Of a stretch of DNA of 64,000 nucleotides, positions 33,407-52,590 are shown in pieces. The notes under the pieces were generated by a model that was not told the origin of the DNA, ran no database searches, and worked only from the letters and a program-made list of their open reading frames with translations. A program made the position numbers and the translations under genes. The first letter of the stretch is position 1. Every line of letters begins with the position of its first letter. This DNA comes from a virus. Location of the stretch: the IMG/VR virus record IMGVR_UViG_3300032073_000022, positions 4,883 to 68,882 of that record; one strand, 5' to 3'.

Positions 33407-33940
33407 TCAACTCCCCTTGTTCAAATGGGGGAGTTCGCACCTAGGAATTTGGCATTTATCGCATATTTCATGCCATCTGTCTGGTAAATCTTCAAATTTG
33501 TAAACTTCTACGCCAAGATCTTCACCGTAGTGACCCTGTGTAAAGAATTGAGTGGTATGCTCCATCCAGTTATCTTCAAAAAATTTCATATGATCTTCAA
33601 TCGCTAGAAAGTCTTTTATCTCGTCAGCAATTGGCTCTAGTATCTTGTGTTGATTTGATTTTAATCTTTGTACCCAATTGTTCATGCTGACAAATCTATC
33701 TTTAATAGGCCTGTGGATAGCAAACCTGTATATATCGTTCCAATCTTTAATGTACCCCTTAAGGACTGCTGCCGTTTGATGGCCCTGACATCTTTCAAAC
33801 TCTCTGACAAACATGGGAACCGTACTGATCAAGGACGGTACTCCATGTCCAACACAAGTAGATGCGATAGCGTTTTTTATGGAATTACCACCAGTTCTGG
33901 GGATGTGAATAAAAACTGCTCTTTTAGGTAGGTATATCAT
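33407..33940 (-). CDS. Sulfotransferase (Sulfotransfer_2 / carbohydrate sulfotransferase-like)
   Basis: 5'-PSB motif FIHIPRTGGNSI, 3'-PB-like FAIHRPIKDRFVS, C-terminal LPHLN. Confidence 0.8.
   Translation of the reverse strand: MIYLPKRAVFIHIPRTGGNSIKNAIASTCVGHGVPSLISTVPMFVREFERCQGHQTAAVLKGYIKDWNDIYRFAIHRPIKDRFVSMNNWVQRLKSNQHKILEPIADEIKDFLAIEDHMKFFEDNWMEHTTQFFTQGHYGEDLGVEVYKFEDLPDRWHEICDKCQIPRCELPHLNKGS
33409..33435 (-). terminator. Possible terminator hairpin at the end of the sulfotransferase gene
   Basis: AACUCCCC/GGGGAGUU stem followed by GAUUUAUU; weak U-tract. Confidence 0.3.
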
Positions 33941-34521
33941 AGCACTTCACACATATAGCTAGGGTATTTTTCTAAACTTATTCCAATCATCTTCATTTTG
34001 CCAGCCTGAATGTTCTCGTTAACAGCTCTTATTACACCCGCTTTCCAAACTTGACAGTTTGTCACATAATCATGTCCCATTATTAGACCTCCCTTTTTAA
34101 CTTTCAATAATGCGGATTCAATCTCTATTGATACAGATTTGTAATCATGGCAGGCATCTATGTATATCCAGTCTAGATAATTATCTTCTAGCGAATACAA
34201 AAAATTACCACCGTATTCTCTATGTAGCTCAACTTTGTAGGCTTCTATTTCTCTTTGAAAAAGTTTTCCTACTAAACGTCTGTGGTCGTCTTCCCACAAG
34301 GACGGGGCATCTATTAGGCAGGCGTTGGGATGTCTTTCCCTCCAAATGTCACATAGGTGCAGTTTTTTAGGTTTAGCTACATGATACAGAGATACAGAAT
34401 TGCGACCTTTGCAAACGCCTATCTCTGCACCAATACCATCCTTCGGGATATCTAAATATAGTTCGTTAACTGTTTCGTATTCTTTTATTTTATCCATCTT
34501 TCTCCTCTGGGCAGATGACAA
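33937..34521 (-). CDS. Class I SAM-dependent methyltransferase (Methyltransf_24-like)
   Basis: GAEIGVCKG motif I; LDWIYIDACHDY; KVKKGGLIMGHDY. The true start may be the second Met. Confidence 0.85.
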   Translation of the reverse strand: MSSAQRRKMDKIKEYETVNELYLDIPKDGIGAEIGVCKGRNSVSLYHVAKPKKLHLCDIWRERHPNACLIDAPSLWEDDHRRLVGKLFQREIEAYKVELHREYGGNFLYSLEDNYLDWIYIDACHDYKSVSIEIESALLKVKKGGLIMGHDYVTNCQVWKAGVIRAVNENIQAGKMKMIGISLEKYPSYMCEVL

Positions 34522-35515: not shown

Positions 35516-35923
35516 TTACTCCATAAACATCTCAAAACCCGTTCCTAATATCATTACTATATCATGAGTGGCTTTATTGGGTGATCCAGAACTACCTGTA
35601 CCTGAAGGTAAGTCACAGGGAGAGTCGTCGCCAGTACCAGCGGTATCATAAAGATACTTAATTGTTAATTGGGTTTGTCCTGCTCCCATTTCCATTCCAC
35701 CACCGCCACCGCCACCAACTGCGGTCACAACGTATACGTATGTAGATAGAACAGTACTGCTACCACCGTCGCCAGCTCCTCTTTTTTCAACATAGACATA
35801 ATGGCCAATTTTAGCGTTGGCGTACTCATCATCATAAGTGATGGTATAGCTTGGTCCAGAGCCACTACAGGAGTCAACCCCTGCATTGTCGTGAATTACA
35901 ACATGATTTCTTAGGTTAGCCAT
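35516..35923 (-). CDS. Small virion/fibre-associated protein
   Basis: 135 aa, Gly-rich; 1-nt overlap with the upstream fibre gene. Confidence 0.55.
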   Translation of the reverse strand: MANLRNHVVIHDNAGVDSCSGSGPSYTITYDDEYANAKIGHYVYVEKRGAGDGGSSTVLSTYVYVVTAVGGGGGGGMEMGAGQTQLTIKYLYDTAGTGDDSPCDLPSGTGSSGSPNKATHDIVMILGTGFEMFME

Positions 35924-38900
35924 TAGTTTGGTATATCTTGTCCTATGATGAAGCCATCAAATTTAGTGTCGTTTGCACTACCTCCGGTCGCCGTGCATAA
36001 AAATCCATATACATCTTTATGTCCCTGATGGGAAGTTCCGTCGTTTCCAGTCATTGTTGGTGAAATATTTCCAGCCCATTTTAATTCAGCGGCGGTACTT
36101 CCATCTATTCTCACTGTTGACCAACTTATTCCGTGTCCAGTACCGCTAGTGGCTTGGATAAATCGAATAACAAACTTTTGCCCTATTGTGGCATTTTCAA
36201 ACTGTACGGCTGTGATATCGGCACCCAAGAGTATGTTGAAATAATTACCTTTGCTTAGGTCTATCTGCAATGTAGCGTCTTCTGTTGTGGTTCCGGTGGC
36301 TGGAACTGGCTGATTAACATATGCTCCTTGTACTAAGTGGAGTCTGTTTTCGCTTTCATCCCATTCTACATAAGAGCCGCTTCTAGCACCAAAGAACTTA
36401 ACATCTTTACCTGTGTCATCAACACCAACCGTAAGGGTTCCATCTAACTGAACATTACCATCAATGTCTACAGCATCTAGATTTGTTGTGCCGTCTACAT
36501 CTAAATCACCGTCAACATCAGTATTTCCTGTAACAGTTATGCTATCGACATAAGCATCTTTCCATCTTTTTGCACTAGTACCAAGATCTACATCGCTGTC
36601 GGCTTCTGGCCCAAACACGTTGTCAATTAAGCTAACTTGGTCAACGTTATTTGCTCTAAGTATAATCTTATTGTTTGTCGTAGCAAAGTCAATTAAGTTC
36701 TCAGTGCCTCTACCCATCTTGAGGGAGGCGTTGTATACAGAAGTAATTGTAGTTTGTGCGGCAGTAATTGCTATGTCGTTAGCGTTCGCTGTAATGCCAT
36801 CGCCACCAACAACGTTTAGTGTTGCGTCTCCAGTAGTGGCTCCGCCTGTTAAACCGTCACCAGCAACTACAGATGTGATATCTCCTCCGCCTCCTCCACC
36901 AGAAGCATCCTCCCATTGAGGTGCGTTTCCAGCATCGTTGACAGTTAAGACTTGACCATCACTACCTATTCCCAATCTAACGTAGTCAGTACCATTGTAG
37001 TACATTATATCGCCCGCAGCATCAGAGCCAAGGGCTATCTTTGCACCAGTAATTCCATTGTCTGCAATATAAGCACTGGCAATTGCAGTGCCATTCCAAA
37101 CTCCAGTGTCGATAGTGCCTACCGTAGTGATTGCTAACCCGTTGATATCAGCTTTAGTTTGGTCTGCTGTAGCATTGGCTTCAATAGCATCTAATTTGCT
37201 TTCTTGAGCGTCTGTCATAAACCTTTTATTTGAGGCGTCTGACATATTGGCTGTTGTGAAGTTTGGAGAAGAGCCAGATATTACAGACTGATCTAAAGCT
37301 TTCACGTCTGCTATGCTCGCTAGCTCACTATCCATTAATGCTCCAGCCGCTGTCACGTTAGTAGTGTCTGTCACATCTGCACTAGCCTCTATAGCATCTA
37401 GCTTGGTTTTGTCCCCATCTGCAAATGCTCCTTCAGAAGGTTTGACTTGTAGAGTAGAAATGGTGACCCCTTTGACGCCAGCTAGGTCAGTCAGCTCACT
37501 GTCCATCAAGGCTCCAGCCGCAGTAACATTGGTGGCATCCGTAACATCCGCACCGTCTTCAACATTCAGTGCTGTTCGTACTTCGGTTGCTGTTAAACCC
37601 TCTACTTCTGTACCATTGATTCTAAGGAAGTCATTGTCTGCTACTGCATCGTTAGCTGTTAGAACGTTTCCGTCTGAAATACCCTTTGTTAAGGCTTTTA
37701 CAAATGCGAGATTTGTTACCTCTGAATCCATCAAGGCTCCAGCAGCAGTTACATTGGTCGCATCAGTCACATCGGCATTTGCTTCAATACCATCTAGTTT
37801 GGTATGATCAGCGTTTGTAAAATCATTAGTTGTTAACCCACCGTCACCTACGGAATAAGTAGTATTAGTATCAACAGCCGAACCATTAAATTTAAGGGTT
37901 CCGCCGTCGTTGTAGAGCTTGTTTGTAGTAGAGGAAGGAGCATTATCTGGTAAGACTACACCACCATCTGGACCAACAGCTACGACCTCGGTGCCATCAC
38001 TTTTTTGGAAAGTTTGCATGTTAGCAGATTGAGAAGCGTGAGCCTTTACTTTAATCCCAATATCGGAGGCTGTATGCATATTTACATCCATAGCGGCGGA
38101 GTAAACATCTGCCCATCTTAGCGTACTTGCTCCAAGGGATCTTCCATTGTCGTTGTTTGGGTAAAGGGCGGCGTGTACTCTCCAAGTATTGGAACTTGCG
38201 TGGAACTGGAGCCTATCTGTTCCTCCGTTTTGGAACATTATGTCGCGGGCTGTTCCGTCTCCAGCGGTGGTATTTATTACAAATTCATTAGCTTTCCAAC
38301 CCATCTTCAGGGTTTCATTGTCTGTGTTAGCCGAGTTTATAAAATGAATGTTAGGAGGAGTGTCATTATCTCCACTGTTCATTATAATGTTAGAAAGACT
38401 AGTTAACTGGCCTCTATTTAGATCTCCAGCGAAAAACGATAAACCGGAGGGGACGCCAGTAGACAGGGCTACATCGTTAGCGTTGACAGTTATGCCATTA
38501 CCAGCTCCGACAGCAAAACTTCTGTTGGAAGAAATGTCTCCACCACCTGTTAATCCATCACCAGCAGTTAGGGTTACAGAAGTGTGGTCTATGTGTTCAT
38601 TAGCTACAAAATTACTAGCCGTGTCATGGTCAACAACAAAGTCCATGTCACCGTTAGTATCATCATAGGTTATTGCGATCCCTGTCTTTGTTCCCCCGGT
38701 TGCCACTAGCGGGCCTGCAATATCCTGAACTTCTTCTGTTGTAAGGGTAGCTGTAATGAAAGCAGAAGACGAGTTATCGTAGTTAGATAGGTCGTTATCA
38801 ACCGTCAAGTCGATTGCACCATCGCCAGCGTCATCGTAAGCTGCTGTAATGAGGGTGTGACTACCATTAGTGACAAATTGAGCACCGACGATATCTTGGG

Positions 38901-41900
38901 CTTCTTCTGATGTTAAACCACCTCCACCACCACCAGCGGTCCAAGGTACGTTTACAACCAGCTTGTCACTGCTATCCACCTGTACGGCGTAAGTTCTAGA
39001 CGCGGTAGTTGTGCGACTCTCAGCGGCTGTTGTTTGAACAGTATAGTCTACTAAGTTTGCATTAAATTTAGTACCTTGTAATATAACTCCGCTATCACTA
39101 GTGTAGGTAGTATTGGTATCGCTATTAACAGCAGAACCGTTAAACTTCAGTGTACCCCCGTCATTATAAAGTCTATTAGTGGTAGAAGAGGGTACATGAT
39201 TTGCTAACTCAACGCCACTAGCAGTTAATCCACTAGCAAGTATTTGGCCTAGTTTTGCTCTGTCGTCGGTAACGGCAGATCCATGAACAGCAATTATACC
39301 AGCAGAATATCTTTTAAGGTTAGTATCTGTGCCGTCTTGTGCTTCACCAACAGAGCTGCTAGACCAACCAATATAACTGGCATTACCAACTTGAAGGCGG
39401 TCATCGCCTATGATAAGTCTATTTCTTCCACCGGCACAAAATGCTATTTGTTGATCGCTAAACTTTTCGTAAAATCCAACACGTCTATTGCTAGAGCCTG
39501 TAAAACAAAGAGTTGGGGCGGAAGTGCCTCCTCCTCCGGGTAAGAATATTTGACCACTAGCAGAAGTGATATCACCACTGGTTAAAATATGTCCTTGGCT
39601 AGATATCTCAGCCTTAATCGTACCGGCACTATCTTGCCACTCGGTTAGATTCGCAGACTGAGCAGCTTTCCCTTTTATAACTACACCTTTATAAGCAGCA
39701 GCCAACGGATATGCGGTAAATCCCCTGTTAAAGTGAGGTACAGAGCTTCCAATCTCACCATCGGGACTCTGCCTTGAATCAAAGACCTCAGTAACTCCAA
39801 CATATAATTTAGTTCTATAATAACTTTTTAGTTCTTGTATATTACCATCTACATGTAAACTATGATCTCCACCATTTGTTGTCATGGTAATTCCACCACA
39901 GTCGGTAACTGCACTGCTTGTAGAACCGTCAAGTGTTATACCTCTGGTGGCACTAGCGTATATAAACCCATCACCACTAGTTAGAACCCCGTCATCTCCG
40001 AAAAACGCAACACCAGATGGACCGCCAACCCCGCTAGCTGAATTGGCGAGTATGTCGGCGGCGTGATTAGCTCCGCTAGCAGCAAGACGAATTATGTCAT
40101 TGGCGTGATTAACACCACTAGCAGATTCAGTTCTAAGCTCTGTTGTCAGATTGGTGACGGATGTGTTGGTGGCTGTACCGCTGGCAGCGTTGCGGATAAT
40201 ATCAGCGGCATGGTTTGTACCGCTAGTAGCAAGATGGGTAATGTCGGCGGCGTGGTTCGTTCCACTGGCGGCTAACCTGATTATATCGTTAGCATGATTT
40301 ACACCACTTGCAGACTCTGTCCTTAACTCAGTAGTTAAATTTGTCACAGAAGTGTTGGTGGCTGTACCGCTGGCAGCGTTGCGGATAATATCAGCAGCAT
40401 GATTGGTTCCACTGGCGGCTAATCTGATTATGTCATTAGCGTGGTTTACACCGCTAGCCGACTCTGTTCTCAACTCAGTGGTTAAATTTGTTACAGACGT
40501 ATTGGTTGCAGTTCCACTCGCTGAATTCCTAATAATATCAGCGGCGTGGTTTGTGCCGCTAGTAGCGAGACGAATAATGTCGGCGGCGTGATTCGTTCCG
40601 CTGGCGGCAAGCCGGATTATGTCATTAGCATGGTTGACACCGCTAGCTGACTCTGTTCTTAGTTCGGCGGTTAAATTAGTTATAGAAGTGTTGGTTGCGG
40701 TGCCGCTCGCAGAATTTCTGATAATGTCCGCAGCGTGATTGGTTCCGCTTGAAGCTAGTCTTGTGATATCATTAGCATTATTAAGACCGCTAGCAGAATT
40801 TGTGCGGATTTCAGTAGTGTTTGCAGTTATTAAATTAGTAAGTGTAGTGGAGATGTTTGCATCGTCATTAATAGCAGCCGCTAGCTCATTTAGCGTGTTC
40901 AGTGTAGCGGGAGCACTATCTACTAAGGCTGCTACTTTAATATCTGTATAAGATTGATTGTATCCAGAGACTGCATTGCCAGAACCAAAGTCTAGGTGAA
41001 ACTTATTATTCTGTAGAATTAAACCGCTTCCCGCTGTATATGTTGTGCCTCCGCCGCCGCCGCCAGCAGTGGTTTGAGTGGTACCATCATTAAACCTTAA
41101 ACCGCTAAGACCAATGTTAATACCGCTAGCTGAAAGTATTGAACTAGTGTAGCTTGGGACATTGGAGTCTGTGTAATGCTCTGCCCAACCACTAACAGCA
41201 GCAATATAATCTTTATTGGATTGGCCGGAGGCGTTGAGTTTATTAGTGTTTTGATTTATATTAATTTGTAAGGTAGATGTTTTGTTATCTATTCTATCTT
41301 GAAGATAACCGCTAACATTATCAATTTTAGTTCTATTAAAATTACCAGAACTCATAAATGTGTAGTGGTCATTTGTTATACTTGTTGAGTTTGCAGATAT
41401 CAGTGCTAAGTTTGCATTACCTGAAGCTATTGCTGTAGTAGCTCCCGTGTGATCGTCAGAGGCCAAGTGACTAGCAACATGACCAATTACCCAACCACTA
41501 ATAGAGCTATCACCCTGTGAAGATTTTTGTGTTGATATATCCAAAGCCCAGCCGCTAATGGATGCCGAATAGTCTTTATTAGCATTTCCTGAAGCGTTTA
41601 AAGCAGATAAGTTGGAGGTTATTTGTGGCTGTAGATAGCCACTAACTGCTGTAGCGTCTGCTATGCCATCAATAACAGACTGGAAGTACCCACTAACTGC
41701 TGTTCCAGATAGATCGCTATCAACGTAATATTTTGCCCATCCACTAATATCTACGCCGCTCGCAGAATTACTTCTAATGTCGTCTAATACGTCTGTTCCA
41801 GCTAAGACTAAAGATCCATCGCTCTTTATTTTTGCCAGAACTGTGTCTGAGCTATTTCTCCACTCTTGTATGTTAGCGGCTTGTGCTGGTGCAGACTTTA

Positions 41901-42696
41901 GTATTAATGCTGGGTAAGCGGCAGTTTTTCCAATTATGGAAGTACCGGTTGTGCTAGCTGCACTAAAAATAACATTAGATTTATTGGTGACTTGAAAGCC
42001 AGCACCGTGAGTGAGATTAAGGCTGTTTTGACTATTGGCGTATAAACCAACATTTCCATCAGCACCAAAAACGTAAGCGTATGTGGGTGCAGAAGTAGGG
42101 CTGCTTGGCCCAGATTTTAAGCCAAGCTTCCACTCTGGAGAAGAAGAACCATCGGTATGGAGTGAAACAGTTTTATTAATACCGTCATCAAGGTACGCTT
42201 GAAAGAAATTACCGGCATTTGGTCTACTCAGTGTTAGCATCCCACTGCTGATCATACCGCTAGAGGATGTAATAAAGTTAGCCCCTGCAAAGCTAGATGC
42301 TGTTAGATTATTTGTTGTTATGTCGCCATTGGTTGTTGAAAGGCTACCGCTGCCTAAAATTATATCACCGCTTATGACAACGTTACCGTCAAGATTTTTG
42401 AATACGCTTTTTTCCGACGACAGTGCTATAAAAACAAAGGAGACGCCACTCAAAGATATTTTGGAGCCGCCTGAAGAGCTAGATATAACGGTATCTCTAG
42501 AAAGCGAACCAGCGGAGTAAGTACCAATACCCACTTCCCATCTGGTATCATTTTCTATCACGTAATAAGTCTGGTTACCTTCTCCAACGGCGGAGCCAAA
42601 CGAAACAAAGCCACCAATAGCACCACCTAGAGTTAAGGTGCCGGTACCCGCTGTGATTGTTGTTTCTTTGACTCTATCTGATAGTATTAACGACAT
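35923..42696 (-). CDS. Long fibre protein (2257 aa)
   Basis: SDRVKETT...WEVGIGTY anchor; APATLNTLNELAAAIND, AGDGLTGGGDISSNR and DVTDATNVTAAGALMDSE fibre motifs; C-terminal IDLSKGNYF...WAGNISPT...DVYGF tip domain. Confidence 0.85.
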   Translation of the reverse strand: MSLILSDRVKETTITAGTGTLTLGGAIGGFVSFGSAVGEGNQTYYVIENDTRWEVGIGTYSAGSLSRDTVISSSSGGSKISLSGVSFVFIALSSEKSVFKNLDGNVVISGDIILGSGSLSTTNGDITTNNLTASSFAGANFITSSSGMISSGMLTLSRPNAGNFFQAYLDDGINKTVSLHTDGSSSPEWKLGLKSGPSSPTSAPTYAYVFGADGNVGLYANSQNSLNLTHGAGFQVTNKSNVIFSAASTTGTSIIGKTAAYPALILKSAPAQAANIQEWRNSSDTVLAKIKSDGSLVLAGTDVLDDIRSNSASGVDISGWAKYYVDSDLSGTAVSGYFQSVIDGIADATAVSGYLQPQITSNLSALNASGNANKDYSASISGWALDISTQKSSQGDSSISGWVIGHVASHLASDDHTGATTAIASGNANLALISANSTSITNDHYTFMSSGNFNRTKIDNVSGYLQDRIDNKTSTLQININQNTNKLNASGQSNKDYIAAVSGWAEHYTDSNVPSYTSSILSASGINIGLSGLRFNDGTTQTTAGGGGGGTTYTAGSGLILQNNKFHLDFGSGNAVSGYNQSYTDIKVAALVDSAPATLNTLNELAAAINDDANISTTLTNLITANTTEIRTNSASGLNNANDITRLASSGTNHAADIIRNSASGTATNTSITNLTAELRTESASGVNHANDIIRLAASGTNHAADIIRLATSGTNHAADIIRNSASGTATNTSVTNLTTELRTESASGVNHANDIIRLAASGTNHAADIIRNAASGTATNTSVTNLTTELRTESASGVNHANDIIRLAASGTNHAADITHLATSGTNHAADIIRNAASGTATNTSVTNLTTELRTESASGVNHANDIIRLAASGANHAADILANSASGVGGPSGVAFFGDDGVLTSGDGFIYASATRGITLDGSTSSAVTDCGGITMTTNGGDHSLHVDGNIQELKSYYRTKLYVGVTEVFDSRQSPDGEIGSSVPHFNRGFTAYPLAAAYKGVVIKGKAAQSANLTEWQDSAGTIKAEISSQGHILTSGDITSASGQIFLPGGGGTSAPTLCFTGSSNRRVGFYEKFSDQQIAFCAGGRNRLIIGDDRLQVGNASYIGWSSSSVGEAQDGTDTNLKRYSAGIIAVHGSAVTDDRAKLGQILASGLTASGVELANHVPSSTTNRLYNDGGTLKFNGSAVNSDTNTTYTSDSGVILQGTKFNANLVDYTVQTTAAESRTTTASRTYAVQVDSSDKLVVNVPWTAGGGGGGLTSEEAQDIVGAQFVTNGSHTLITAAYDDAGDGAIDLTVDNDLSNYDNSSSAFITATLTTEEVQDIAGPLVATGGTKTGIAITYDDTNGDMDFVVDHDTASNFVANEHIDHTSVTLTAGDGLTGGGDISSNRSFAVGAGNGITVNANDVALSTGVPSGLSFFAGDLNRGQLTSLSNIIMNSGDNDTPPNIHFINSANTDNETLKMGWKANEFVINTTAGDGTARDIMFQNGGTDRLQFHASSNTWRVHAALYPNNDNGRSLGASTLRWADVYSAAMDVNMHTASDIGIKVKAHASQSANMQTFQKSDGTEVVAVGPDGGVVLPDNAPSSTTNKLYNDGGTLKFNGSAVDTNTTYSVGDGGLTTNDFTNADHTKLDGIEANADVTDATNVTAAGALMDSEVTNLAFVKALTKGISDGNVLTANDAVADNDFLRINGTEVEGLTATEVRTALNVEDGADVTDATNVTAAGALMDSELTDLAGVKGVTISTLQVKPSEGAFADGDKTKLDAIEASADVTDTTNVTAAGALMDSELASIADVKALDQSVISGSSPNFTTANMSDASNKRFMTDAQESKLDAIEANATADQTKADINGLAITTVGTIDTGVWNGTAIASAYIADNGITGAKIALGSDAAGDIMYYNGTDYVRLGIGSDGQVLTVNDAGNAPQWEDASGGGGGGDITSVVAGDGLTGGATTGDATLNVVGGDGITANANDIAITAAQTTITSVYNASLKMGRGTENLIDFATTNNKIILRANNVDQVSLIDNVFGPEADSDVDLGTSAKRWKDAYVDSITVTGNTDVDGDLDVDGTTNLDAVDIDGNVQLDGTLTVGVDDTGKDVKFFGARSGSYVEWDESENRLHLVQGAYVNQPVPATGTTTEDATLQIDLSKGNYFNILLGADITAVQFENATIGQKFVIRFIQATSGTGHGISWSTVRIDGSTAAELKWAGNISPTMTGNDGTSHQGHKDVYGFLCTATGGSANDTKFDGFIIGQDIPN
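37330..37790 (-). repeat. Coding repeat DVTD[AT]TNVTAAGALMDSE x3
   Basis: Read from translation. Confidence 0.85.
40040..40800 (-). repeat. Coding 14/22-aa tandem repeats (ASGTNHAADIIRL / ASGTATNTSVTNLTTELRTES)
   Basis: Read from translation; coiled-coil-like periodicity with SG at each unit. Confidence 0.9.
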
Positions 42697-42707
42697 AATA
42701 TCTCTCT

Positions 42708-43868
42708 TTATTTACATCTTTTTTTACAGCATTTCCCAGTTTTTGAGTTAGCCTTCGACTGAAGTTGTTTTAATTTTAATTTTAATTGATCTATCTCACT
42801 TAGCACTTCGGGGTCTATAGTTGATTCACCCCTGTATATACTCCTACATTCATCTACGATTCGATTGTAATCATCAAGGTCGAGATTTTGCTCTTCCACA
42901 AAATGTTTTTTGATTGGAGACAAATCCATGTTAAGCTCTAAGAACTCTAATACGTAATTTCTAACTTTGTTACCTAGTGTTAAGGGGTAAGAAACTCCAT
43001 CCGGTCTATCAAACCTATGAAGCCATCTTAAAAATGGAAGATAAATAACTTTTCTGTCATTCATTCTATACTTTTCATGTATGTAGCATTCTTCTCCACC
43101 AAAACCCTCGGCATATTCATTAAATCCAAGCCAAGCATTTTTTCTAGTAAAAAAGCAGCCTAACCCTTGAGCAAAAACCTCAAATGGTTTTTCACTTGCA
43201 TTTCTGCCGACTAAGCTGTAACCTTGGCTATTAAGTGTCTGATTTATAAGTTTCCATTCCACATCTTTAGGAAACTCTCTATTACAATATACACATTTAT
43301 CAATACTTTCCCCTGTATCCAACTTAGAAAAGGCGGCTTTGCCATTTACGTTTTTTATTGAAAAATTAAATGACTCACAAACACACTGCCAAGCGTTGGC
43401 CCATTGACCCCACATGCCACTACCCCACGTATCTTTAAAGTGAGTGGAGATAGCAAGGCAATTATCGTGGACTAAAGGGCCGCAAAATAAGTCGTTGGAA
43501 TCTGCATTGTATTCCATGTAGGTAAATAATCTGTCTAGAGTGTCAACAACTGGACAGAGTAGTACATGACAATCCAGAACTAAAACAAAGTTGGTTCTAG
43601 CTTCCTCTATTACTTTATTTCTAGTGGCCGAAGTACCTTTTTTATCAGTAAAATCTACTACTCTTAATGAGTTTATTTTTTTCTCTAGAGATTTTACCGA
43701 TTTTCCATGTTTACTATTTGGATTATTCTCTACTACTAAAAACTCTATCTTTTGCAATAGATCTTGTCTATTGTTAAAAGTAAGCTCTTTTATAATATCT
43801 TGAATTGTAAAATACACACCATTAAAATCATCGTGATGTGCCATTCCTATTGTTAGTGTTTGTTCCAT
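42708..43868 (-). CDS. GT-A fold glycosyltransferase, polypeptide-HexNAc transferase-like (GT27/GT60-type motifs)
   Basis: TLTIGMAHHD; IEFLVVENN; GTSATRNKVIEEARTNFVLVLDCH (DxH); GLGCFFTRKNAWLGFNEYAEGFGGEE; WLHRF. Contains a CxC...CxxC insertion. Confidence 0.8.
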   Translation of the reverse strand: MEQTLTIGMAHHDDFNGVYFTIQDIIKELTFNNRQDLLQKIEFLVVENNPNSKHGKSVKSLEKKINSLRVVDFTDKKGTSATRNKVIEEARTNFVLVLDCHVLLCPVVDTLDRLFTYMEYNADSNDLFCGPLVHDNCLAISTHFKDTWGSGMWGQWANAWQCVCESFNFSIKNVNGKAAFSKLDTGESIDKCVYCNREFPKDVEWKLINQTLNSQGYSLVGRNASEKPFEVFAQGLGCFFTRKNAWLGFNEYAEGFGGEECYIHEKYRMNDRKVIYLPFLRWLHRFDRPDGVSYPLTLGNKVRNYVLEFLELNMDLSPIKKHFVEEQNLDLDDYNRIVDECRSIYRGESTIDPEVLSEIDQLKLKLKQLQSKANSKTGKCCKKRCK

Positions 43869-43891
43869 CTTTTTTCTCCTAAAGTTAAAAA

Positions 43892-46435
43892 TTAATATGG
43901 TCCACTTGGATCTCCACCTCCGGGGCTATCTCCATCGCCTTCGCCATCCGGACTTGATCCTCCTCCGGGGTCGTCGCCATCTCCGTCGCCGTCGCCATCC
44001 GGACTTGATCCTCCGCCGGGGTCGTCGCCATCTCCGTCGCCATCGCTAGGGCTTTCATCGGGGTCGTCGCCATCTCCGTCGCCGCCGCCGGTTGGGTCAT
44101 CGTCAGGAACGTCAGGGTTGTCAGGATCGTCACCCGGTCCATCTGGACCATCTGGATCATCTGGATCATCTGGATCATCTGGATCTTCGGTGGTCGTAGT
44201 AGTGCAATTTTCTGGGCGGTCTTCTGGGTTTTTTTCCCACCACGGTTGTTGCTCCCATTCTGCACAACAGTCAATACCAGTGCTATCAGTGTCTGCCCCC
44301 GATGCCGTCTCAGAATTAGTTTTACAAGAAGCTGGGTCCATTGGGTAGAAATTACGTCCGAAACGAGCAATTGATTGGGTGGGGCAGTTCCCGAGACAGT
44401 CTATTCCCGTAGTATGTCCTAAGTAGGGGTGCGTATCCCCGCATTGACTATGGTTTACCCCAGCGTTTGCGGCTTCGCAATTGTGTTCTCTCATAGGATA
44501 ACCGGGATTTGGGCCTCCACCGGGATTAGCTAACCATCTATCTGTACACACGAGGTATACTTTTAAAACGTTGCTCCCAACCGTTTCGTCGAACTCACAA
44601 CGCTTCTCTGTGAAGCAACATATACCAACAGGACCATCTGTAGTCGTTGTTGTTGAAGTGCATGGTTCTGGTGGGTTAGCATGACTCTGACCTTCTTTTC
44701 TGCCTCCCGATTTTCTATCATCGAACCATTGACCACAGCAAGAAATTTCCTCAATCAGGTCTTCCAGATCATCACCTTCGCTTCCCGGACAAACTTTAAA
44801 TTTTCCTTCGAGTGGTTTACCTGCTCTTGTGTATATACCCTCGTTCACACCGAGGAAATCGCACTGAGCTTGGGTTACCCAATCATGGCACGTTAATTCC
44901 TCAGTGTGCGGATGCATATAGCAACACATACCAACTGGCTCTTCCGTGGTTGATGTTGTTGTTCCATCGCAAGCCCCCAACGTTCCGTTGAAGTCTTCAC
45001 AGTAAACACAGCATCCCGGAGTGCCGTCAATTATAAGAGTTGATCCGTTAACACAGCAAGTAGCAGTTCCGCATTCACCGACTGTTCCATCTGCGGCTAT
45101 ACAGTCGCTATCACCGAAGCAAGTTTGACATGGCCTCTCTGTTGTGGTTGTCGTACCTTCTAGCGTTGTGGTTGTTGTTGGTTCCAATGTGGTTGTGGTT
45201 GTGGTTGTTGGTTCATCACCACAGCTTCCATTGACTGTTGCCCCAATCGAATACGCCCAGCAAAAGTCATTATGCCTAATGGTTTCGCCCCATGCCGTAA
45301 TGTGCTCACATGGACACTCACTTTTACAAGGAGGAGATGCTACCCAAGTCTTGCCAACAAAGCCAGAAATACAAGTCAAAACACAGTCACTGCCACAGGG
45401 TGACGGCGTTGTGGTTGTTGTAGTGGTAGGGTCGCTACAAGGATCTACCCCTTGGCAACCATTTGGTAAAAATCTTCCCCCTAAATTATTGCATTGATTC
45501 TCGGTGGTCGGGAAACAAAAGGAACCAAAGCAACATCCGCCTAGCGGATTGTCCGTGGTTGTTGTGGTTGTTGTTGGTTCCAATGTTGTTGTTGTTGTTG
45601 TTGGAACGGGACACTCATCGCAAAAACTGCGGTCTAGACCTGAGTAGTTTGTCTTTCCGGGAAATTGGTTTTCACAGCAATTAGCCATGCGAGATGTTGA
45701 ATTTGGAGGTCCACATATGGTTTCAGGTGCATTCGCCGCACAACCTAAAAACTCTGTGTTGCCTGAAGAATTGTCTGCATAACAGCAAATTACACCATAC
45801 CTACAGTTATGAAAAACAAACCCGTTAACAAAGTAAAGATGATTGCCATCTAAGGATAGATCATAAAGTATAGTGTCAGGACTGTAATATCCTAAACTAA
45901 TTTGGTCAACCTTTACTTCTCCGTCCTCACTGTATATGATATCTCCAACGGAGAGATTTTCAACAAAATTAATCTCAGGATACAGATTTCTAGATAGTTC
46001 AACATCAAAAGATTTGAAGCCTTCTTTCGTGAGAACGGGATGGTCATAACTAAAAAACATTGGCTTGTTGTTAATAGAAGCCATCTTCCTGTCACCAAGA
46101 TGGACTTTCTCTATTTCAACAACCTCGTTGACTAGACCATTTATAGATCTGACTTTTTCGCCAATAGAGATCTCTGATATTTTTTTATGACTACCATTCT
46201 CCATCAAGACTAATGAGTTAGGGAGAAAGCATGAGGGAGGGAGGTCTAGGCAGTTGTTTCGTTGGGCACATGTCAGAGTAGAAAATGAACCGTCTAATCT
46301 TACTTCACAATCATTAACTGTAACATTGTCTTCGCACACTTTATGTGTTAAAGATTGAGCTGGATCAATATAGCAACAAGACCCCACTGGAGGTGGTGGT
46401 GGCGTAACACCGTCACATTGACAGCAATTGGTCAT
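43892..46435 (-). CDS. Cys-rich, poly-Thr mucin-like protein with a mini-intein and an acidic Asp/Gly/Pro tail
   Basis: Repeated GxCC modules separated by PTTTTTT linkers; Hint domain at aa 69-210; DPD/GDGDGDD tail; GGAGG RBS. Confidence 0.8.
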   Translation of the reverse strand: MTNCCQCDGVTPPPPPVGSCCYIDPAQSLTHKVCEDNVTVNDCEVRLDGSFSTLTCAQRNNCLDLPPSCFLPNSLVLMENGSHKKISEISIGEKVRSINGLVNEVVEIEKVHLGDRKMASINNKPMFFSYDHPVLTKEGFKSFDVELSRNLYPEINFVENLSVGDIIYSEDGEVKVDQISLGYYSPDTILYDLSLDGNHLYFVNGFVFHNCRYGVICCYADNSSGNTEFLGCAANAPETICGPPNSTSRMANCCENQFPGKTNYSGLDRSFCDECPVPTTTTTTLEPTTTTTTTDNPLGGCCFGSFCFPTTENQCNNLGGRFLPNGCQGVDPCSDPTTTTTTTPSPCGSDCVLTCISGFVGKTWVASPPCKSECPCEHITAWGETIRHNDFCWAYSIGATVNGSCGDEPTTTTTTTLEPTTTTTLEGTTTTTERPCQTCFGDSDCIAADGTVGECGTATCCVNGSTLIIDGTPGCCVYCEDFNGTLGACDGTTTSTTEEPVGMCCYMHPHTEELTCHDWVTQAQCDFLGVNEGIYTRAGKPLEGKFKVCPGSEGDDLEDLIEEISCCGQWFDDRKSGGRKEGQSHANPPEPCTSTTTTTDGPVGICCFTEKRCEFDETVGSNVLKVYLVCTDRWLANPGGGPNPGYPMREHNCEAANAGVNHSQCGDTHPYLGHTTGIDCLGNCPTQSIARFGRNFYPMDPASCKTNSETASGADTDSTGIDCCAEWEQQPWWEKNPEDRPENCTTTTTEDPDDPDDPDDPDGPDGPGDDPDNPDVPDDDPTGGGDGDGDDPDESPSDGDGDGDDPGGGSSPDGDGDGDGDDPGGGSSPDGEGDGDSPGGGDPSGPY
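43915..44190 (-). repeat. Coding low-complexity tandem repeats (9-bp TCTGGATCA units; GDGDGDDPGGGSSPD units)
   Basis: Direct DNA repeats visible. Confidence 0.85.
45806..46231 (-). mobile_element. Mini-intein / Hint domain (142 aa, no endonuclease)
   Basis: Block A CFLPNSLV; block B FSYDHPV; blocks F/G LYDLSLDGNHLYFVNGFVFHN followed by +1 Cys (45803-45805). Confidence 0.88.
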
Positions 46436-50964: not shown

Positions 50965-51462
50965 CTAATTAAAGCGTATTTGTAACGTGGAAGTATCAAA
51001 TTTTACAGTATCACCCAGATAAATAATTCTTGGATTATCTAGCTGTGCGTACATTAAAAGATTTCCAGTCCCATACTCTCCTGAGTCTACTACGGCTACA
51101 CCTGAAACCCAACCCCAATCAACTAGGGCTGCACTACCTTCACCCTCATCAAAGTTGAATGAACCTGCATTTTTTATTAATCCACTTCCAGCGTTGTGAT
51201 CGTCTAGGTTGTAATCCCAGATTTTATTGCCTTTAGAGGAGGGGTCTCCAAGGTTTATTCTGGCATACCCTGTTCTTGTTTGCGTTGTCCCGTCAGTCGG
51301 GGAAGTTCCAGAGGGTAACTCTGGAATTGTGACACCAGTATCTGATTCTGATGGCACTCCGGAACATAGTGCTATTGCTATGTTTTCTGGCTTTGAAAAA
51401 CTTTGACCCCTAAAAAGGTGGTGCAATAGTCCGGATTCTAAGTAATCTGATAAAGAAGCCAT
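50965..51462 (-). CDS. Conserved small virion structural protein
   Basis: SDYLE..LLHHLFRG...IAL...GYAR...WG.V...D...GNLL pattern, which I recognise from phage structural modules. Confidence 0.65.
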   Translation of the reverse strand: MASLSDYLESGLLHHLFRGQSFSKPENIAIALCSGVPSESDTGVTIPELPSGTSPTDGTTQTRTGYARINLGDPSSKGNKIWDYNLDDHNAGSGLIKNAGSFNFDEGEGSAALVDWGWVSGVAVVDSGEYGTGNLLMYAQLDNPRIIYLGDTVKFDTSTLQIRFN

Positions 51463-51582: not shown

Positions 51583-52590
51583 TTAGAATGAACCTAAGAT
51601 AACCCTTCTGTTGTCCAGAACTGCGAAGCCAAGTTCAGCAAATCCGTAGTATCCAGCACGCTGCTGTCTATGCAGTGCAGGATCTTCAAATACCTGAACC
51701 TGTTGCTTCATTGGCATGATGAAGCTGTCGTTGGCACCTTGATCTAGGCCAACAACCAACTCAGCGTCGGCTGACTGAACAGCACCGCCAAGACCATCTG
51801 TGAAGAAGGACTGGTATTCCTGACCTTCTCCAAGTTCATCAAGATCATGCAGATTGACCCCAAAGATTCGAGTAATTGGAGCACCGCCTTCAGCAGCAGT
51901 GTAAATTTCTCGACGGGTAACTTCGTCAATCTGATCCAGACCCCAGTTGCGAACGTCTTCCAGAGCTTCTGGAGAAACATAGAGGTCCGTCAAGCGACCG
52001 CGATTAGCGGAGCCTGTGTTACCGCCAGCATTACGACGCATAGTCGTTTGCATGAGAGAGACAAGTCTCTTGCTGAACATACCAGCGGTTGCATCACCGT
52101 CGTAAACCAAGATGTTTCTGTCAACGCCAGCGGCCAACAATGTGTGCCATCCGTCGTCATTCATCTTCTTGGTAAAGCCAGCTTCAAGAGCTTGCATCGC
52201 ACGACCAACGATATCCCAACGTGCTTCACGAGCATAACGGAGCAAGTAATCAATGCTCGATGTAATGCTGTATGTTGGAATCGTTACGTAGTCGCTTTCG
52301 ACTGCTCGTTCTGGAACACGACCGTGACCGGGATTGGTATAAGCAACATGCTCACCTTCAAGCCCCGGAGAAATCAAGTCGAGGGGATACTCAGTGGAAG
52401 CTCCCGGCTCAACGTTGATAGTTTCAAAAATATCACCAAGGATATTTCCGACAAGAACACCCTTACGCAAAGGAAGTTCTAATGCTTTAGCGAATTCTCG
52501 CTGTGCGGCGTAAGCAACATTTTGGTCGCCATCGCCCGATTTTTTCAGAAGTGCGATGAATTCATCGCTAGGTCTTTCTGTATATGACAT
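51583..52590 (-). CDS. Major capsid protein (HK97-fold expected)
   Basis: 335 aa after protease/scaffold and decoration genes. E-loop-like HVAYTNPGHGRVP, backbone helix DIVGRAMQALEAGFTKKMND, C-terminal YGFAELGFAVLDNRRV. Strong RBS (AAAGGAGA) and terminator. Confidence 0.85.
   Translation of the reverse strand: MSYTERPSDEFIALLKKSGDGDQNVAYAAQREFAKALELPLRKGVLVGNILGDIFETINVEPGASTEYPLDLISPGLEGEHVAYTNPGHGRVPERAVESDYVTIPTYSITSSIDYLLRYAREARWDIVGRAMQALEAGFTKKMNDDGWHTLLAAGVDRNILVYDGDATAGMFSKRLVSLMQTTMRRNAGGNTGSANRGRLTDLYVSPEALEDVRNWGLDQIDEVTRREIYTAAEGGAPITRIFGVNLHDLDELGEGQEYQSFFTDGLGGAVQSADAELVVGLDQGANDSFIMPMKQQVQVFEDPALHRQQRAGYYGFAELGFAVLDNRRVILGSF

Follow-up and report, generated by a model that had tools for sequence, protein, structure and literature searches.

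A GT27-like glycosyltransferase gene adjoins the gene for a threonine-rich, mucin-like protein in an uncultured marine tailed phage

Two adjacent genes of an uncultured marine tailed phage encode a soluble GT-A glycosyltransferase, whose nearest fold is the catalytic domain of the GT27 polypeptide GalNAc-transferases (ppGalNAc-Ts, or GALNTs), and a modular protein in which threonine runs link cysteine-rich modules. The two genes probably constitute an enzyme-substrate pair, in which the enzyme glycosylates threonines of its mucin-like neighbour. The window analyzed here is the whole 64,000-nt stretch at positions 4,883 to 68,882 of IMG/VR record IMGVR_UViG_3300032073_000022, and carries 37 genes; its parent viral contig is 68.9 kb long and about 41% complete, and a related genome measures 163 kb. 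The pair is located among head and fibre genes and, judged only from this position, the 847-aa protein is most likely a fibre or decoration displayed by the virion. The features of the pair, in window coordinates, are as follows.

42708..43868 (-), soluble GT-A glycosyltransferase, 386 aa, with the GT27 ppGalNAc-T catalytic domain as nearest fold (Pfam PF00535, AF2, Foldseek, VIA-align)
43017..43019 (-), H284, candidate third metal ligand (C-His; invariance, and spacing compared with GalNAc-T2)
43089..43106 (-), G255-F-G-G-E-E260, counterpart of GT27 W331-G-G-E334 by spacing only, not superposition
43284..43385 (-), four-Cys insertion C162, C164, C192, C195, in a beta-rich insert at aa 143-200 (alignment)
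43566..43574 (-), DxH motif D99-C100-H101, predicted to bind metal, at the end of strand 94-99 (alignment of 37 sequences)
43869..43891 (-), 23-nt spacer, no terminator, AGGAG as the ribosome-binding site (sequence inspection)
43892..46435 (-), mucin-like modular protein, 847 aa (ORF and composition)
43895..44188 (-), acidic Asp/Gly/Pro-rich low-complexity tail, aa 750-847 (composition)
44189..45805 (-), Cys-rich modules linked by P-T(5-7)-x-x-P, aa 211-749 (sequence and module alignment)
45806..46231 (-), mini-intein/Hint domain, 142 aa, aa 69-210 (TIGR01443, residue pattern)
46250..46384 (-), N-terminal six-Cys "CC" module, aa 18-62 (alignment of 29 modules)

The spacer consists of the TAA stop codon, then TTTTTAACTTTAGGAGAAAAAAG, which carries the AGGAG Shine-Dalgarno sequence, and is followed by the enzyme ATG. 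No terminator-like site was found within these 23 nt, indicating that the two genes are co-transcribed. The translations contain no hydrophobic segment at the N-terminus of either protein: that of the 847-aa protein, MTNCCQCDGVTPPPPP, lacks the hydrophobic core of a secretory signal peptide, and the enzyme model opens directly with a strand at residues 5-11. The first-pass annotation, made from the sequence before this analysis, had placed the enzyme gene 23 nt downstream and had seen no signal peptide, and both statements were borne out.

The catalytic motifs of the enzyme are strictly conserved. D99, H101, G255-E260, and H284 were invariant in 37 aligned homologues, and C100 was nearly so, with Ser in two; the DCH in place of DxD, the GFGGEE, and the distal HRF (H284-R-F) noticed earlier are all present. 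According to PMC4432651, the Mn ion of GalNAc-T2 is held by D224, H226, and H359, and W331 and E334 line the active site. The phage enzyme likewise has a DxH, an (aromatic)-G-G-E, and a distal His, and the distance from E259 to H284 (25 residues) equals that from E334 to H359 in GalNAc-T2. PMC7185993 reports that DxH in place of DxD is restricted to GT27 and GT60. These are the two families of polypeptide Ser/Thr O-glycosyltransferases, and they share one clade with GT7 and chondroitin-type GT2.

Structural comparisons were made with an AlphaFold (AF2) model of the enzyme (pLDDT 90.7). The 33 Foldseek matches listed against the PDB (ranks 1-49) were all GT27 ppGalNAc-Ts, the best with an E of 5.6e-13. 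VIA-align, run exhaustively over 48,161 chains, likewise gave GT27 as the best fold match by a clear margin, with mouse GalNAc-T1 at Z 22.2 (rmsd 3.0, 262 residues aligned) and Toxoplasma GalNAc-T3 at Z 21.6, followed by K4 chondroitin polymerase (Z 17.2), which the scheme of PMC7185993 puts in the same clade as GT27/GT60, and B4GALNT1 (Z 17.0). No GT60 entry was recognized among the PDB fold-search matches of Foldseek and VIA-align. Among viral structures, several phage proteins named "Glycosyltransferase, GlcNAc" were matched at ranks 4, 6, 7, 12, and 22 (E about 1e-9).

At the sequence level, identity to GT27 is about 13%, and neither phmmer nor a 37-sequence profile matched GT27 among all PDB chains at E up to 1-10; the best chain for the profile was TarS (E 0.034, not significant). 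The generic GT2 model PF00535 (Glycos_transf_2) was matched by all 37 family members, in the phage enzyme with 25.5 bits (cut-off 23.3) and over aa 37-120 only. Although F-G-G-E-E is invariant, none of the 37 matched PF02709 (the Gal/GalNAc-T motif region, W-G-G-E-N). The DxH is also a GT60 trait, and PMC7185993 groups these polypeptide Ser/Thr O-glycosyltransferases with GT27 and reports them from prokaryotes; unlike GT60 (polypeptide alpha-GlcNAc-transferases of protists and prokaryotes), however, the family showed no match to the GT60 model PF11397 in any of its 37 members at E up to 10. Taken together, the modelled fold and the motifs place the enzyme in the GT27/GT60-like branch as a metal-dependent GT-A glycosyltransferase, with metal binding predicted.

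The phage enzyme also differs from GT27 in its accessory parts. It has no type II membrane anchor, and Pfam found no lectin domain in its 386 residues, whereas GT27 has a C-terminal ricin-type lectin. It has instead the four-Cys insertion, in which C162, C192, and C195 are invariant and C164 is kept in at least 90% of homologues, and a coiled-coil/helical C-terminus that ends in a basic, Cys-rich tail (KTGKCCKKRCK). The insertion is probably a zinc ribbon and would bind zinc; zinc-ribbon Pfam matches were weak and came from single family members. The family is essentially viral: a tblastn search of the phage GenBank set gave zero matches, 185,579 prokaryote species genomes gave only five, all in MAG contigs, and the Atlas clusters of the family, over 1,100 at 50% identity, are 90-100% viral.

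The enzyme might act on another target, such as the 2257-aa fibre encoded just downstream or a surface glycan of the host linked to lipid or polysaccharide, with the mucin-like protein only a co-functioning neighbour. We consider this unlikely. Its weak sequence matches are to polysaccharide GT2s such as TuaG, EpsD, and PgaC (E 4e-4 to 7e-2, far under cut-offs), but in VIA-align polysaccharide GT2s score at least 5 Z units under GT27, and the enzyme has no membrane segment. Grouping with polysaccharide GT2s, which the first-pass annotation had named as the outcome that would count against its reading, was not found. The downstream fibre is itself Ser/Thr-rich (11.3% Thr, 10.5% Ser), and in a clade with a 349-aa enzyme a spike-like protein on the other side also has Thr runs. 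A 98%-complete relative (G001; 162.7 kb, 157 ORFs) encodes the enzyme beside a Cys-module orthologue and has no run of four Thr anywhere, indicating that Thr runs are not the only acceptor. Against another target, two unrelated phage backgrounds both have the enzyme gene within late structural operons and always beside a Cys-module protein, and the T-x-x-P rule described below is specific to the neighbours of the enzyme.

The proposed substrate contains 11.2% Thr and 7.4% Cys (63 Cys). Its eight runs of 5-7 Thr, at aa 279-284, 288-294, 337-343, 410-416, 420-424, 428-432, 595-599, and 745-749 (plus one TTT), are flanked by Pro and agree with the roughly eight runs linking Cys-rich modules that had been reported. 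Eight of the nine runs of at least four Thr in the 37 genes of the window fall in this one gene, a concentration that is therefore far beyond chance, and the mixed use of ACA, ACC, ACG, and ACT codons points to selection acting on the protein, as opposed to a microsatellite in the DNA. The six-Cys module has a strand-strand-helix-strand structure without a clear PDB match (best Z 2.8), and is new. The N-terminal module is preceded by a conserved M-T-x-C-C-Q-C-x-G-V-T-P-P-P-P-P (13 orthologue N-termini), with TPPP in 11 of the 13, and further G-x-C-C modules lie at aa 299, 502, and 604. In a 99%-identical relative (P0121), a hydrophobic helix takes the place of the acidic tail, a poor match to the picture of a simple virion fibre.

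The Cys modules are the more constant trait of the neighbour, being kept without Thr runs in L028-30 and G001. They might be the part that is modified, either on Ser/Thr, as in EGF repeats, or on Cys sulphur, as by SunS-type glycocin S-glycosyltransferases, but we regard this as quite improbable. SunS is among the structural matches (Z 14.0) yet scores 8 Z units under GT27, and no Ser/Thr column is invariant in the alignment of 29 modules. In favour of module modification, though as a lead only, GT2 is combined with LanC-like peptide-modifying domains in 36-38% of the members of some distant Atlas clusters. A phage with Cys-module, collagen-like proteins and without Thr runs has no such enzyme in the 13.6 kb available (n=1), which tells against the modules as the modified part.

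The pairing of the two genes recurs in related viruses. Of 48 related viral loci, 38 have a poly-Thr ORF directly beside the enzyme gene, whereas only 7 of 318 non-adjacent ORFs are poly-Thr; many of the 48 are related by descent and are not independent events. In non-redundant lineages (90% enzyme identity), 24 of 29 have such a neighbour and five do not. In relatives the mucin-like gene is linked, contrary to the other outcome held to tell against the pair, and the linkage extends to phages with no other BLASTP-detectable gene in common with the window. The poly-Thr partner occurs in three arrangements: upstream, downstream, and ahead of an enzyme in fused form. In the clade with the fused form, the enzyme alone of 19 window genes shows BLASTP similarity, and the partner gene is placed after the tape-measure gene. 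Adjacency spans the deepest split of the enzyme tree, and four lineages without a poly-Thr neighbour are scattered among those with one.

Most loci with a stand-alone enzyme keep the whole structural gene order of the window (L019, L029), as expected if functional coupling were absent, adjacency being inherited phage gene order and the Thr runs unglycosylated flexible linkers. Such linkers are indeed common in viral proteins without an enzyme nearby: none of 49 control viral loci has the enzyme within 2 kb of an in-frame run of at least seven Thr, so Thr runs exist without it. Nonetheless, we give the absence of coupling the least credence of the readings considered, since adjacency holds where no other gene is detectably related, in three arrangements, and across the deepest split of the tree.

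The sequence context of the Thr runs also argues for coupling. In the neighbour proteins, 224 run contexts were counted from the final Thr, and Pro occupies position +3 in 81% of them (75%, 93%, and 70% by arrangement). It reaches no more than 7% at +1 and 7% at +2, the background being 8.4%. In control Thr runs (97 contexts from the 49 viral loci) Pro +3 was found in 31%, an enrichment of 2.6-fold in the neighbours. According to bioRxiv 10.1101/2020.06.25.171371, a pocket of GT27 enzymes receives the proline at +3 of a T/S-P-x-P sequon. The acceptors of GT27 are Thr-rich, and the phage pattern resembles the T-x-x-P sequon of GT27; peptides for assays could be designed directly from the T(n)-x-x-P rule.

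If the two genes are an enzyme-substrate pair, the enzyme would act in the host cytoplasm during infection, unlike the Golgi enzymes of GT27, and would use a nucleotide sugar as donor, probably a UDP-hexose or UDP-HexNAc, to glycosylate Thr hydroxyls of the protein encoded just upstream. Its preferred target may be the final Thr in every P-T(n)-x-x-P linker, with the conserved N-terminal T-P-P-P as a probable further site. The result would be a mucin-like bottle-brush, with small six-Cys modules spaced by stiff glycosylated Thr linkers. The same architecture is found in the peritrophin-type intestinal mucins of insects, in which small disulphide-rich modules alternate with Thr-rich mucin linkers, without any sequence or fold relation to the phage protein.

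Beyond the first-pass annotation, the Hint domain and the six-Cys module were found, together with three candidate accessory genes in the same window:

33937..34521 (-), Methyltransf_24 methyltransferase in the same structural operon (Pfam E 1.3e-13)
60455..61459 (-), GDP-mannose 4,6-dehydratase (Pfam PF16363, E 1e-113)
61473..61994 (-), GT29 sialyltransferase-like protein, 173 aa (Pfam PF00777, E 7.9e-20)

The best PDB sequence matches of the GT29-like protein were ST6GalNAc-II (E 1.5e-7) and ST3Gal-I (E 5.6e-6), and in relatives of the other clade the enzyme is fused to a domain of the Methyltransf_24 type. These genes might serve in the same pathway.

Mucin-type O-glycosylation counts as a trait of eukaryotes, and glycosylation of phage particles has so far been documented mainly for mycobacteriophages. 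There, phage-encoded glycosyltransferases act on phage structural proteins in the host cytoplasm, as proposed here. In mycobacteriophages, subunits of the capsid and the tail tube carry the glycans at their C-termini (Freeman et al. 2023, Cell Host Microbe, as described in PMC12619734). The pair described here differs in its presumed acceptor, a dedicated modular mucin-like protein, in its GT27-like enzyme, and in its marine hosts. A bolder reading, which we hold to be possible but doubtful, is that the viral family is a prokaryotic-virus branch of GT27/GT60 and that marine phages build genuine mucin-type glycoprotein fibres, with a Thr O-glycan in T-x-x-P that may be extended by the GT29-like enzyme and by methylation, made in the cytoplasm and processed by the intein. 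On this bolder reading, mucin biosynthesis would exist outside eukaryotes, and the phage system might be related to the ancestor from which animal mucin glycosylation arose.

Were the pairing correct, a widespread, uncharacterized marine phage group would encode a mucin-like substrate together with a GT27-like enzyme to initiate its glycosylation, offering a route to the origin of GT27/GT60 enzymes. The two-gene system would be directly testable and expressible in E. coli, with the possible use of making defined mucin-like glycoproteins in bacteria, and would help to explore the influence of glycan coats on phage adsorption, marine-gel stickiness, and particle stability.

The Hint domain behind the first module shows the residues of inteins and bacterial intein-like (BIL) domains: Cys69 comes first, block B is S-Y-D-H-P (D-H132-P), and H209-N210 at the end is followed by Cys211. 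It matched TIGR01443 (intein_Cterm) with 21.2 bits (cut-off 15.6), and the Pfam Hint families PF05203 (21.3 bits, cut-off 32.1), PF01079 (20.5, 29.7), and PF14623 (18.1, 27) under their cut-offs (E 3e-4 to 2.5e-3); the orthologues P0123-P0125 carry a precomputed PF01079 annotation. The mini-intein probably self-splices or cleaves the precursor. Unlike inteins, which occupy conserved enzyme sites, it resides in a hypervariable structural protein, and it lacks a homing endonuclease. Among orthologues it is present in some and absent in others, at one fixed site, and in L012-14 a Hint domain of this type is found close to the C-terminus of another protein, which is spike-like, a BIL-like trait.

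The genes for the 847-aa mucin-like protein and the 386-aa GT-A glycosyltransferase lie in a structural gene order headed by a terminase, with all genes of the region on the minus strand. The IMG/VR viral contig (68,882 bases, most of it covered by the window) was judged 41% complete. No deposited phage was close to the window, and the GenBank phage collection gave no match to the region (DNA search) or to the enzyme (protein search). The order is as follows:

62790-63305, minus strand: sigma-70 region-2-like protein, on the other flank of the packaging module
58794-59444, minus strand: ClpP-type protease, probably the prohead protease, after the terminase in listed order and flanking the packaging module
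56808-58793, minus strand: terminase
51583-52590, minus strand: major head protein, 21% identical to its Bacillus phage G counterpart
between the major head and head-fibre proteins in listed order, minus strand: XM1 gp53-like minor capsid protein
50965-51462, minus strand: gp80-like head-fibre protein
43892-46435, minus strand: 847-aa mucin-like protein
42708-43868, minus strand: 386-aa enzyme
35923-42696, minus strand: 2257-aa fibre-like giant structural ORF, directly past the enzyme
33937-34521, minus strand: stand-alone Methyltransf_24 protein, within the structural operon
24910-30768, minus strand: 1952-aa giant structural ORF
11303-17959, minus strand: 2218-aa tape-measure-like giant structural ORF
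2-11290, minus strand: giant structural ORF, open, >3763 aa

Past the head-fibre protein come proteins of 555 aa, 941 aa, and 847 aa, the enzyme, and the 2257-aa protein. The 23-nt spacing between the mucin-like gene and the enzyme gene, reported in the first-pass annotation, was recovered, with an AGGAG site and no terminator. The 2257-aa protein carries near-perfect tandem repeats of ~45 aa (ASGTNHAADIIR...).

The motifs on which the enzyme had been likened to polypeptide HexNAc-transferases (D99-C-H101, G255-FGGEE-260, and H284-R-F) were all present, and D99, H101, G255-FGGEE-260, and H284 were invariant among 37 homologues (46-94% identity), as were H11 and D14. A four-Cys cluster (C162, C164, C192, and C195), with three residues invariant and C164 conserved in at least 90% of these homologues, looks like a zinc ribbon. 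Sequence comparisons reached only the generic GT2 model of Pfam (25.5 bits, cut-off 23.3); no significant match among PDB chains was obtained with the enzyme alone or with the 37-sequence profile, none of the 37 family members matched the GT60 model PF11397 or PF02709, and identity to GT27 was ~13%. The AlphaFold model of the enzyme (pLDDT 90.7, pTM 0.85) was compared by Foldseek, and all 33 matches listed (ranks 1-49; best E 5.6e-13) belonged to the polypeptide GalNAc-transferases of GT27 (human, mouse, fly, and Toxoplasma enzymes), in line with the earlier assignment. Exhaustive structural alignment with 48,161 representative chains, run independently of Foldseek, ranked GalNAc-T1 highest (Z 22.2 over 262 residues, rmsd 3.0), with Toxoplasma GalNAc-T3 second (Z 21.6), followed, after a gap below GT27, by K4 chondroitin polymerase (17.2), B4GALNT1 (17.0), GT2-type enzymes (14-16.5), and SunS (14.0). 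This model-based order agrees in part with a published GT-A tree, which places GT27 and GT60 in a cluster with GT7 and chondroitin-type GT2, confines DxH in place of DxD to GT27 and GT60, both of which O-glycosylate Ser/Thr of polypeptides, and records GT60 from prokaryotes and protists (PMC7185993).

In GalNAc-T2, the Mn ligands are D224, H226, and H359, and W331 and E334 also lie in the site (PMC4432651). The distance from E259 to H284 in the phage enzyme is 25 residues, the same as that from E334 to H359, and phage F286 stands at His+2, as does F361; judged by spacing only, the two active sites would correspond. Neither the membrane anchor nor the lectin domain found in GT27 enzymes is present in the phage enzyme, which ends in a coiled coil followed by a basic CCKK-type tail. 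This Cys-rich basic tail after a long helix (42708-42740, minus strand) is echoed by CCKK and CCKNK ends in several homologues. A DNA-glycosylating enzyme was considered as another reading and rejected, since the gene lies in a structural operon and the fold resembles GT27.

The enzyme belongs to a family that is large and viral. Its homologues number 1917 in a 90%-clustered collection, and among 1.84 billion 50%-identity representatives searched, 1929 matched at E<=1e-3 and 1142 at E<=1e-30, so the profile stays clear of the millions of ordinary GT2s. Atlas clusters of the family were 90-100% viral. Only five matches were found in prokaryotes, one genome each of the 185,579 species searched, all in MAG contigs and without a mucin-like neighbour. 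Among the best 150 of the matched representatives, lengths were mostly 550-720 aa, and the extra C-terminal domain, where tested, was sugar O-methyltransferase-like: that of locus L036 (7995-9767) reached Methyltransf_24 (31.9 bits, cut-off 26.3), while that of L034 gave a sub-threshold RMNT_CmcI match (E 0.0048). In this other enzyme clade, the domain fused to the glycosyltransferase is methyltransferase-like (CmcI / rhamnosyl O-methyltransferase type); it had no PDB sequence match, and profile comparison with the stand-alone methyltransferase of the window was not significant (probability 1%).

The Thr runs noted at first reading in the 847-aa protein proved to be eight runs of 5-7 Thr, in a protein with 63 Cys, and eight of the nine runs of at least four Thr among the window's 37 genes fall inside its gene. 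The Thr codons are mixed, which argues for selection at the protein level; the same mixing ruled out DNA slippage tracts as an explanation. A module with six Cys recurs in the protein; its pattern, G-x-C-C-x(3-11)-C-x(7-8)-C-x3-G-G-x(5-8)-C-x(2-6)-C, keeps all six Cys invariant across 29 modules from two of the three arrangements described below, and the module was predicted to form a strand-strand-helix-strand miniprotein (pLDDT 83.7). Its model had no convincing relative in the PDB (best, the ADAM17 Cys-rich region, Z 2.8), its sequence had none in Pfam or PHROGs, and PHROGs held no family for the 847-aa protein or for the enzyme. A related-locus search from a single N-terminal-module protein returned two loci. 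In an unrelated viral contig (L056, 5534-8746), collagen-like G-P-T repeat proteins with similar Cys-rich modules (8.9% Cys) were seen; this single contig showed neither Thr runs nor, within 13.6 kb, a member of the enzyme family.

The 847-aa protein is a hypervariable structural protein that also hosts a Hint domain:

45806-46231, minus strand: mini-intein-like Hint domain, aa 69-210 of the 847-aa protein, with Cys69, S-Y-D-H-P, and His-Asn210, then Cys211

The domain scored above threshold for an intein C-terminal model and below it for the Pfam Hint models. Its site is fixed among orthologues, being occupied in the window and in related loci L002-4 and L020, and empty in L005, L006, L007, L010, L016, and L022; in L012-14, a Hint domain of this type occurs close to the C-terminal end of another, spike-like fibre protein. 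In P0121, a protein encoded on a different contig and 99% identical to that of the window, a hydrophobic helix, whose sequence was not found in any frame of the window, replaces the acidic Asp/Gly/Pro-rich tail (43895-44188). The C-termini of such proteins behave as swappable cassettes.

The first-pass annotation had paired the enzyme with the mucin-like protein, and this pairing was borne out in related viruses. An ORF counted as mucin-like when it had at least two runs of at least four Thr, or one such run plus a Cys content of 5% or more. Of 48 related viral loci, 38 had one directly adjoining the enzyme gene (upstream in 34, downstream in 12, and on both sides in 8), and of the non-adjacent ORFs, 7 of 318 qualified; these counts include relatives by descent, and their nominal Fisher values are descriptive only. 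After collapse at 90% enzyme identity, 24 of 29 lineages retained the linkage. The mucin-like proteins fall into three arrangements with mutually unrelated N-termini:

arrangement 1: window type, M-T-x-C-C-Q-C-x-G-V-T-P-P-P-P-P, upstream of the enzyme
arrangement 2: M-G-R-P-x-x-C-x-C-C type, downstream of a 349-aa enzyme, with Thr runs also in an upstream spike-like protein
arrangement 3: M-K-K-Y-L-L type, upstream of the fused enzyme

Four fused-enzyme loci showed BLASTP similarity to only 1 of 19 window genes, namely the enzyme. In L034, the mucin-like gene comes after the tape-measure gene and two small genes, which is the position of a tail-tip fibre. The enzyme tree separated the stand-alone and fused clades (support 100/99). 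An adjacent Thr-run ORF was missing in 5 of 29 lineages; four lineages without one are scattered inside these clades, which suggests secondary loss. One relative, G001 (98% complete, 162,690 bases), encodes the enzyme (E 1.5e-161), and beside it an orthologue of the mucin-like protein that shares its N-terminal module. This orthologue (also L028, 5299-7995) lacks Thr runs, and consists of an N-terminal Cys module, a propeller-like repeat region, and C-terminal Cys modules, with two dockerin-like D-x-N-x-D-G-R-x-T-x-S-D repeats. Throughout the G001 genome, no ORF contains four Thr in a row, and the Thr runs are therefore not the sole acceptor; the T-P-P-P N-terminus, found in 11 of 13 window-type proteins, and short Ser/Thr patches are candidate acceptors.

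A sequon-like rule absent from the first-pass annotation emerged from 224 distinct Thr-run contexts in 45 mucin-like proteins. Counted from the final Thr of a run, position +3 was Pro in 81% of contexts, and Pro stood at position -1 in 46%, compared with 6-7% at +2 and +4, a rank below the five listed residues at +1 (<=7%), and 8.4% overall. The +3 preference held in each arrangement (75%, 93%, and 70%), including runs without a further run behind (32/36, 23/25, and 27/35). As a control, 80 viral loci with seven ACN codons were sampled (L069-L148), of which 49 had in-frame runs of at least seven Thr; there, Pro at +3 was mildly enriched (31% of 97 contexts), and the enzyme was found within 2 kb in none of the 49. 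Runs of this length were common in viral ORFs of the control sample. According to a preprint, a +3 proline pocket is conserved among the GT27 isoforms able to bind the T/S-P-x-P sequon, which are all but T7 and T10; at -1 these isoforms favor Thr, Pro, Ala, or Ser (bioRxiv 10.1101/2020.06.25.171371).

The scheme favored here, held with moderate confidence, is that a Mn-dependent, GT27/GT60-like enzyme would attach an O-linked sugar to T-x-x-P sites of the adjoining modular protein in the cytoplasm, and that the glycosylated product would form a mucin-like fibre or decoration. The nearest precedent for glycosylated phage particles is that of mycobacteriophages, as recounted in PMC12619734. The literature searched contained no phage mucin, GT27-like phage enzyme, or glycosylated Thr/Cys-rich phage protein, and no description of the present system was found there.

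Two further sugar genes lie in the window:

60455-61459, minus strand: GDP-mannose 4,6-dehydratase (Pfam E 1e-113), just upstream of the packaging genes
61473-61994, minus strand: GT29 sialyltransferase-like protein, 173 aa (Pfam E 7.9e-20)

Given the dehydratase, a GDP-6-deoxyhexose precursor can probably be made by the phage. The best PDB sequence matches of the GT29-like protein were ST6GalNAc-II and ST3Gal-I, enzymes that add sialic acid to mucin-type O-glycans, and its motifs L and S were recognizable, although it is far shorter than eukaryotic catalytic domains. GT29 is known from bacteria (PMC5811610), and a literature search for GT29 in phages yielded nothing past bacterial GT29. Among three related records searched, the gene was absent from G003, weakly matched in G001, and present in G002. 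The methyltransferase, the dehydratase, and the GT29-like protein may act on one shared glycan.
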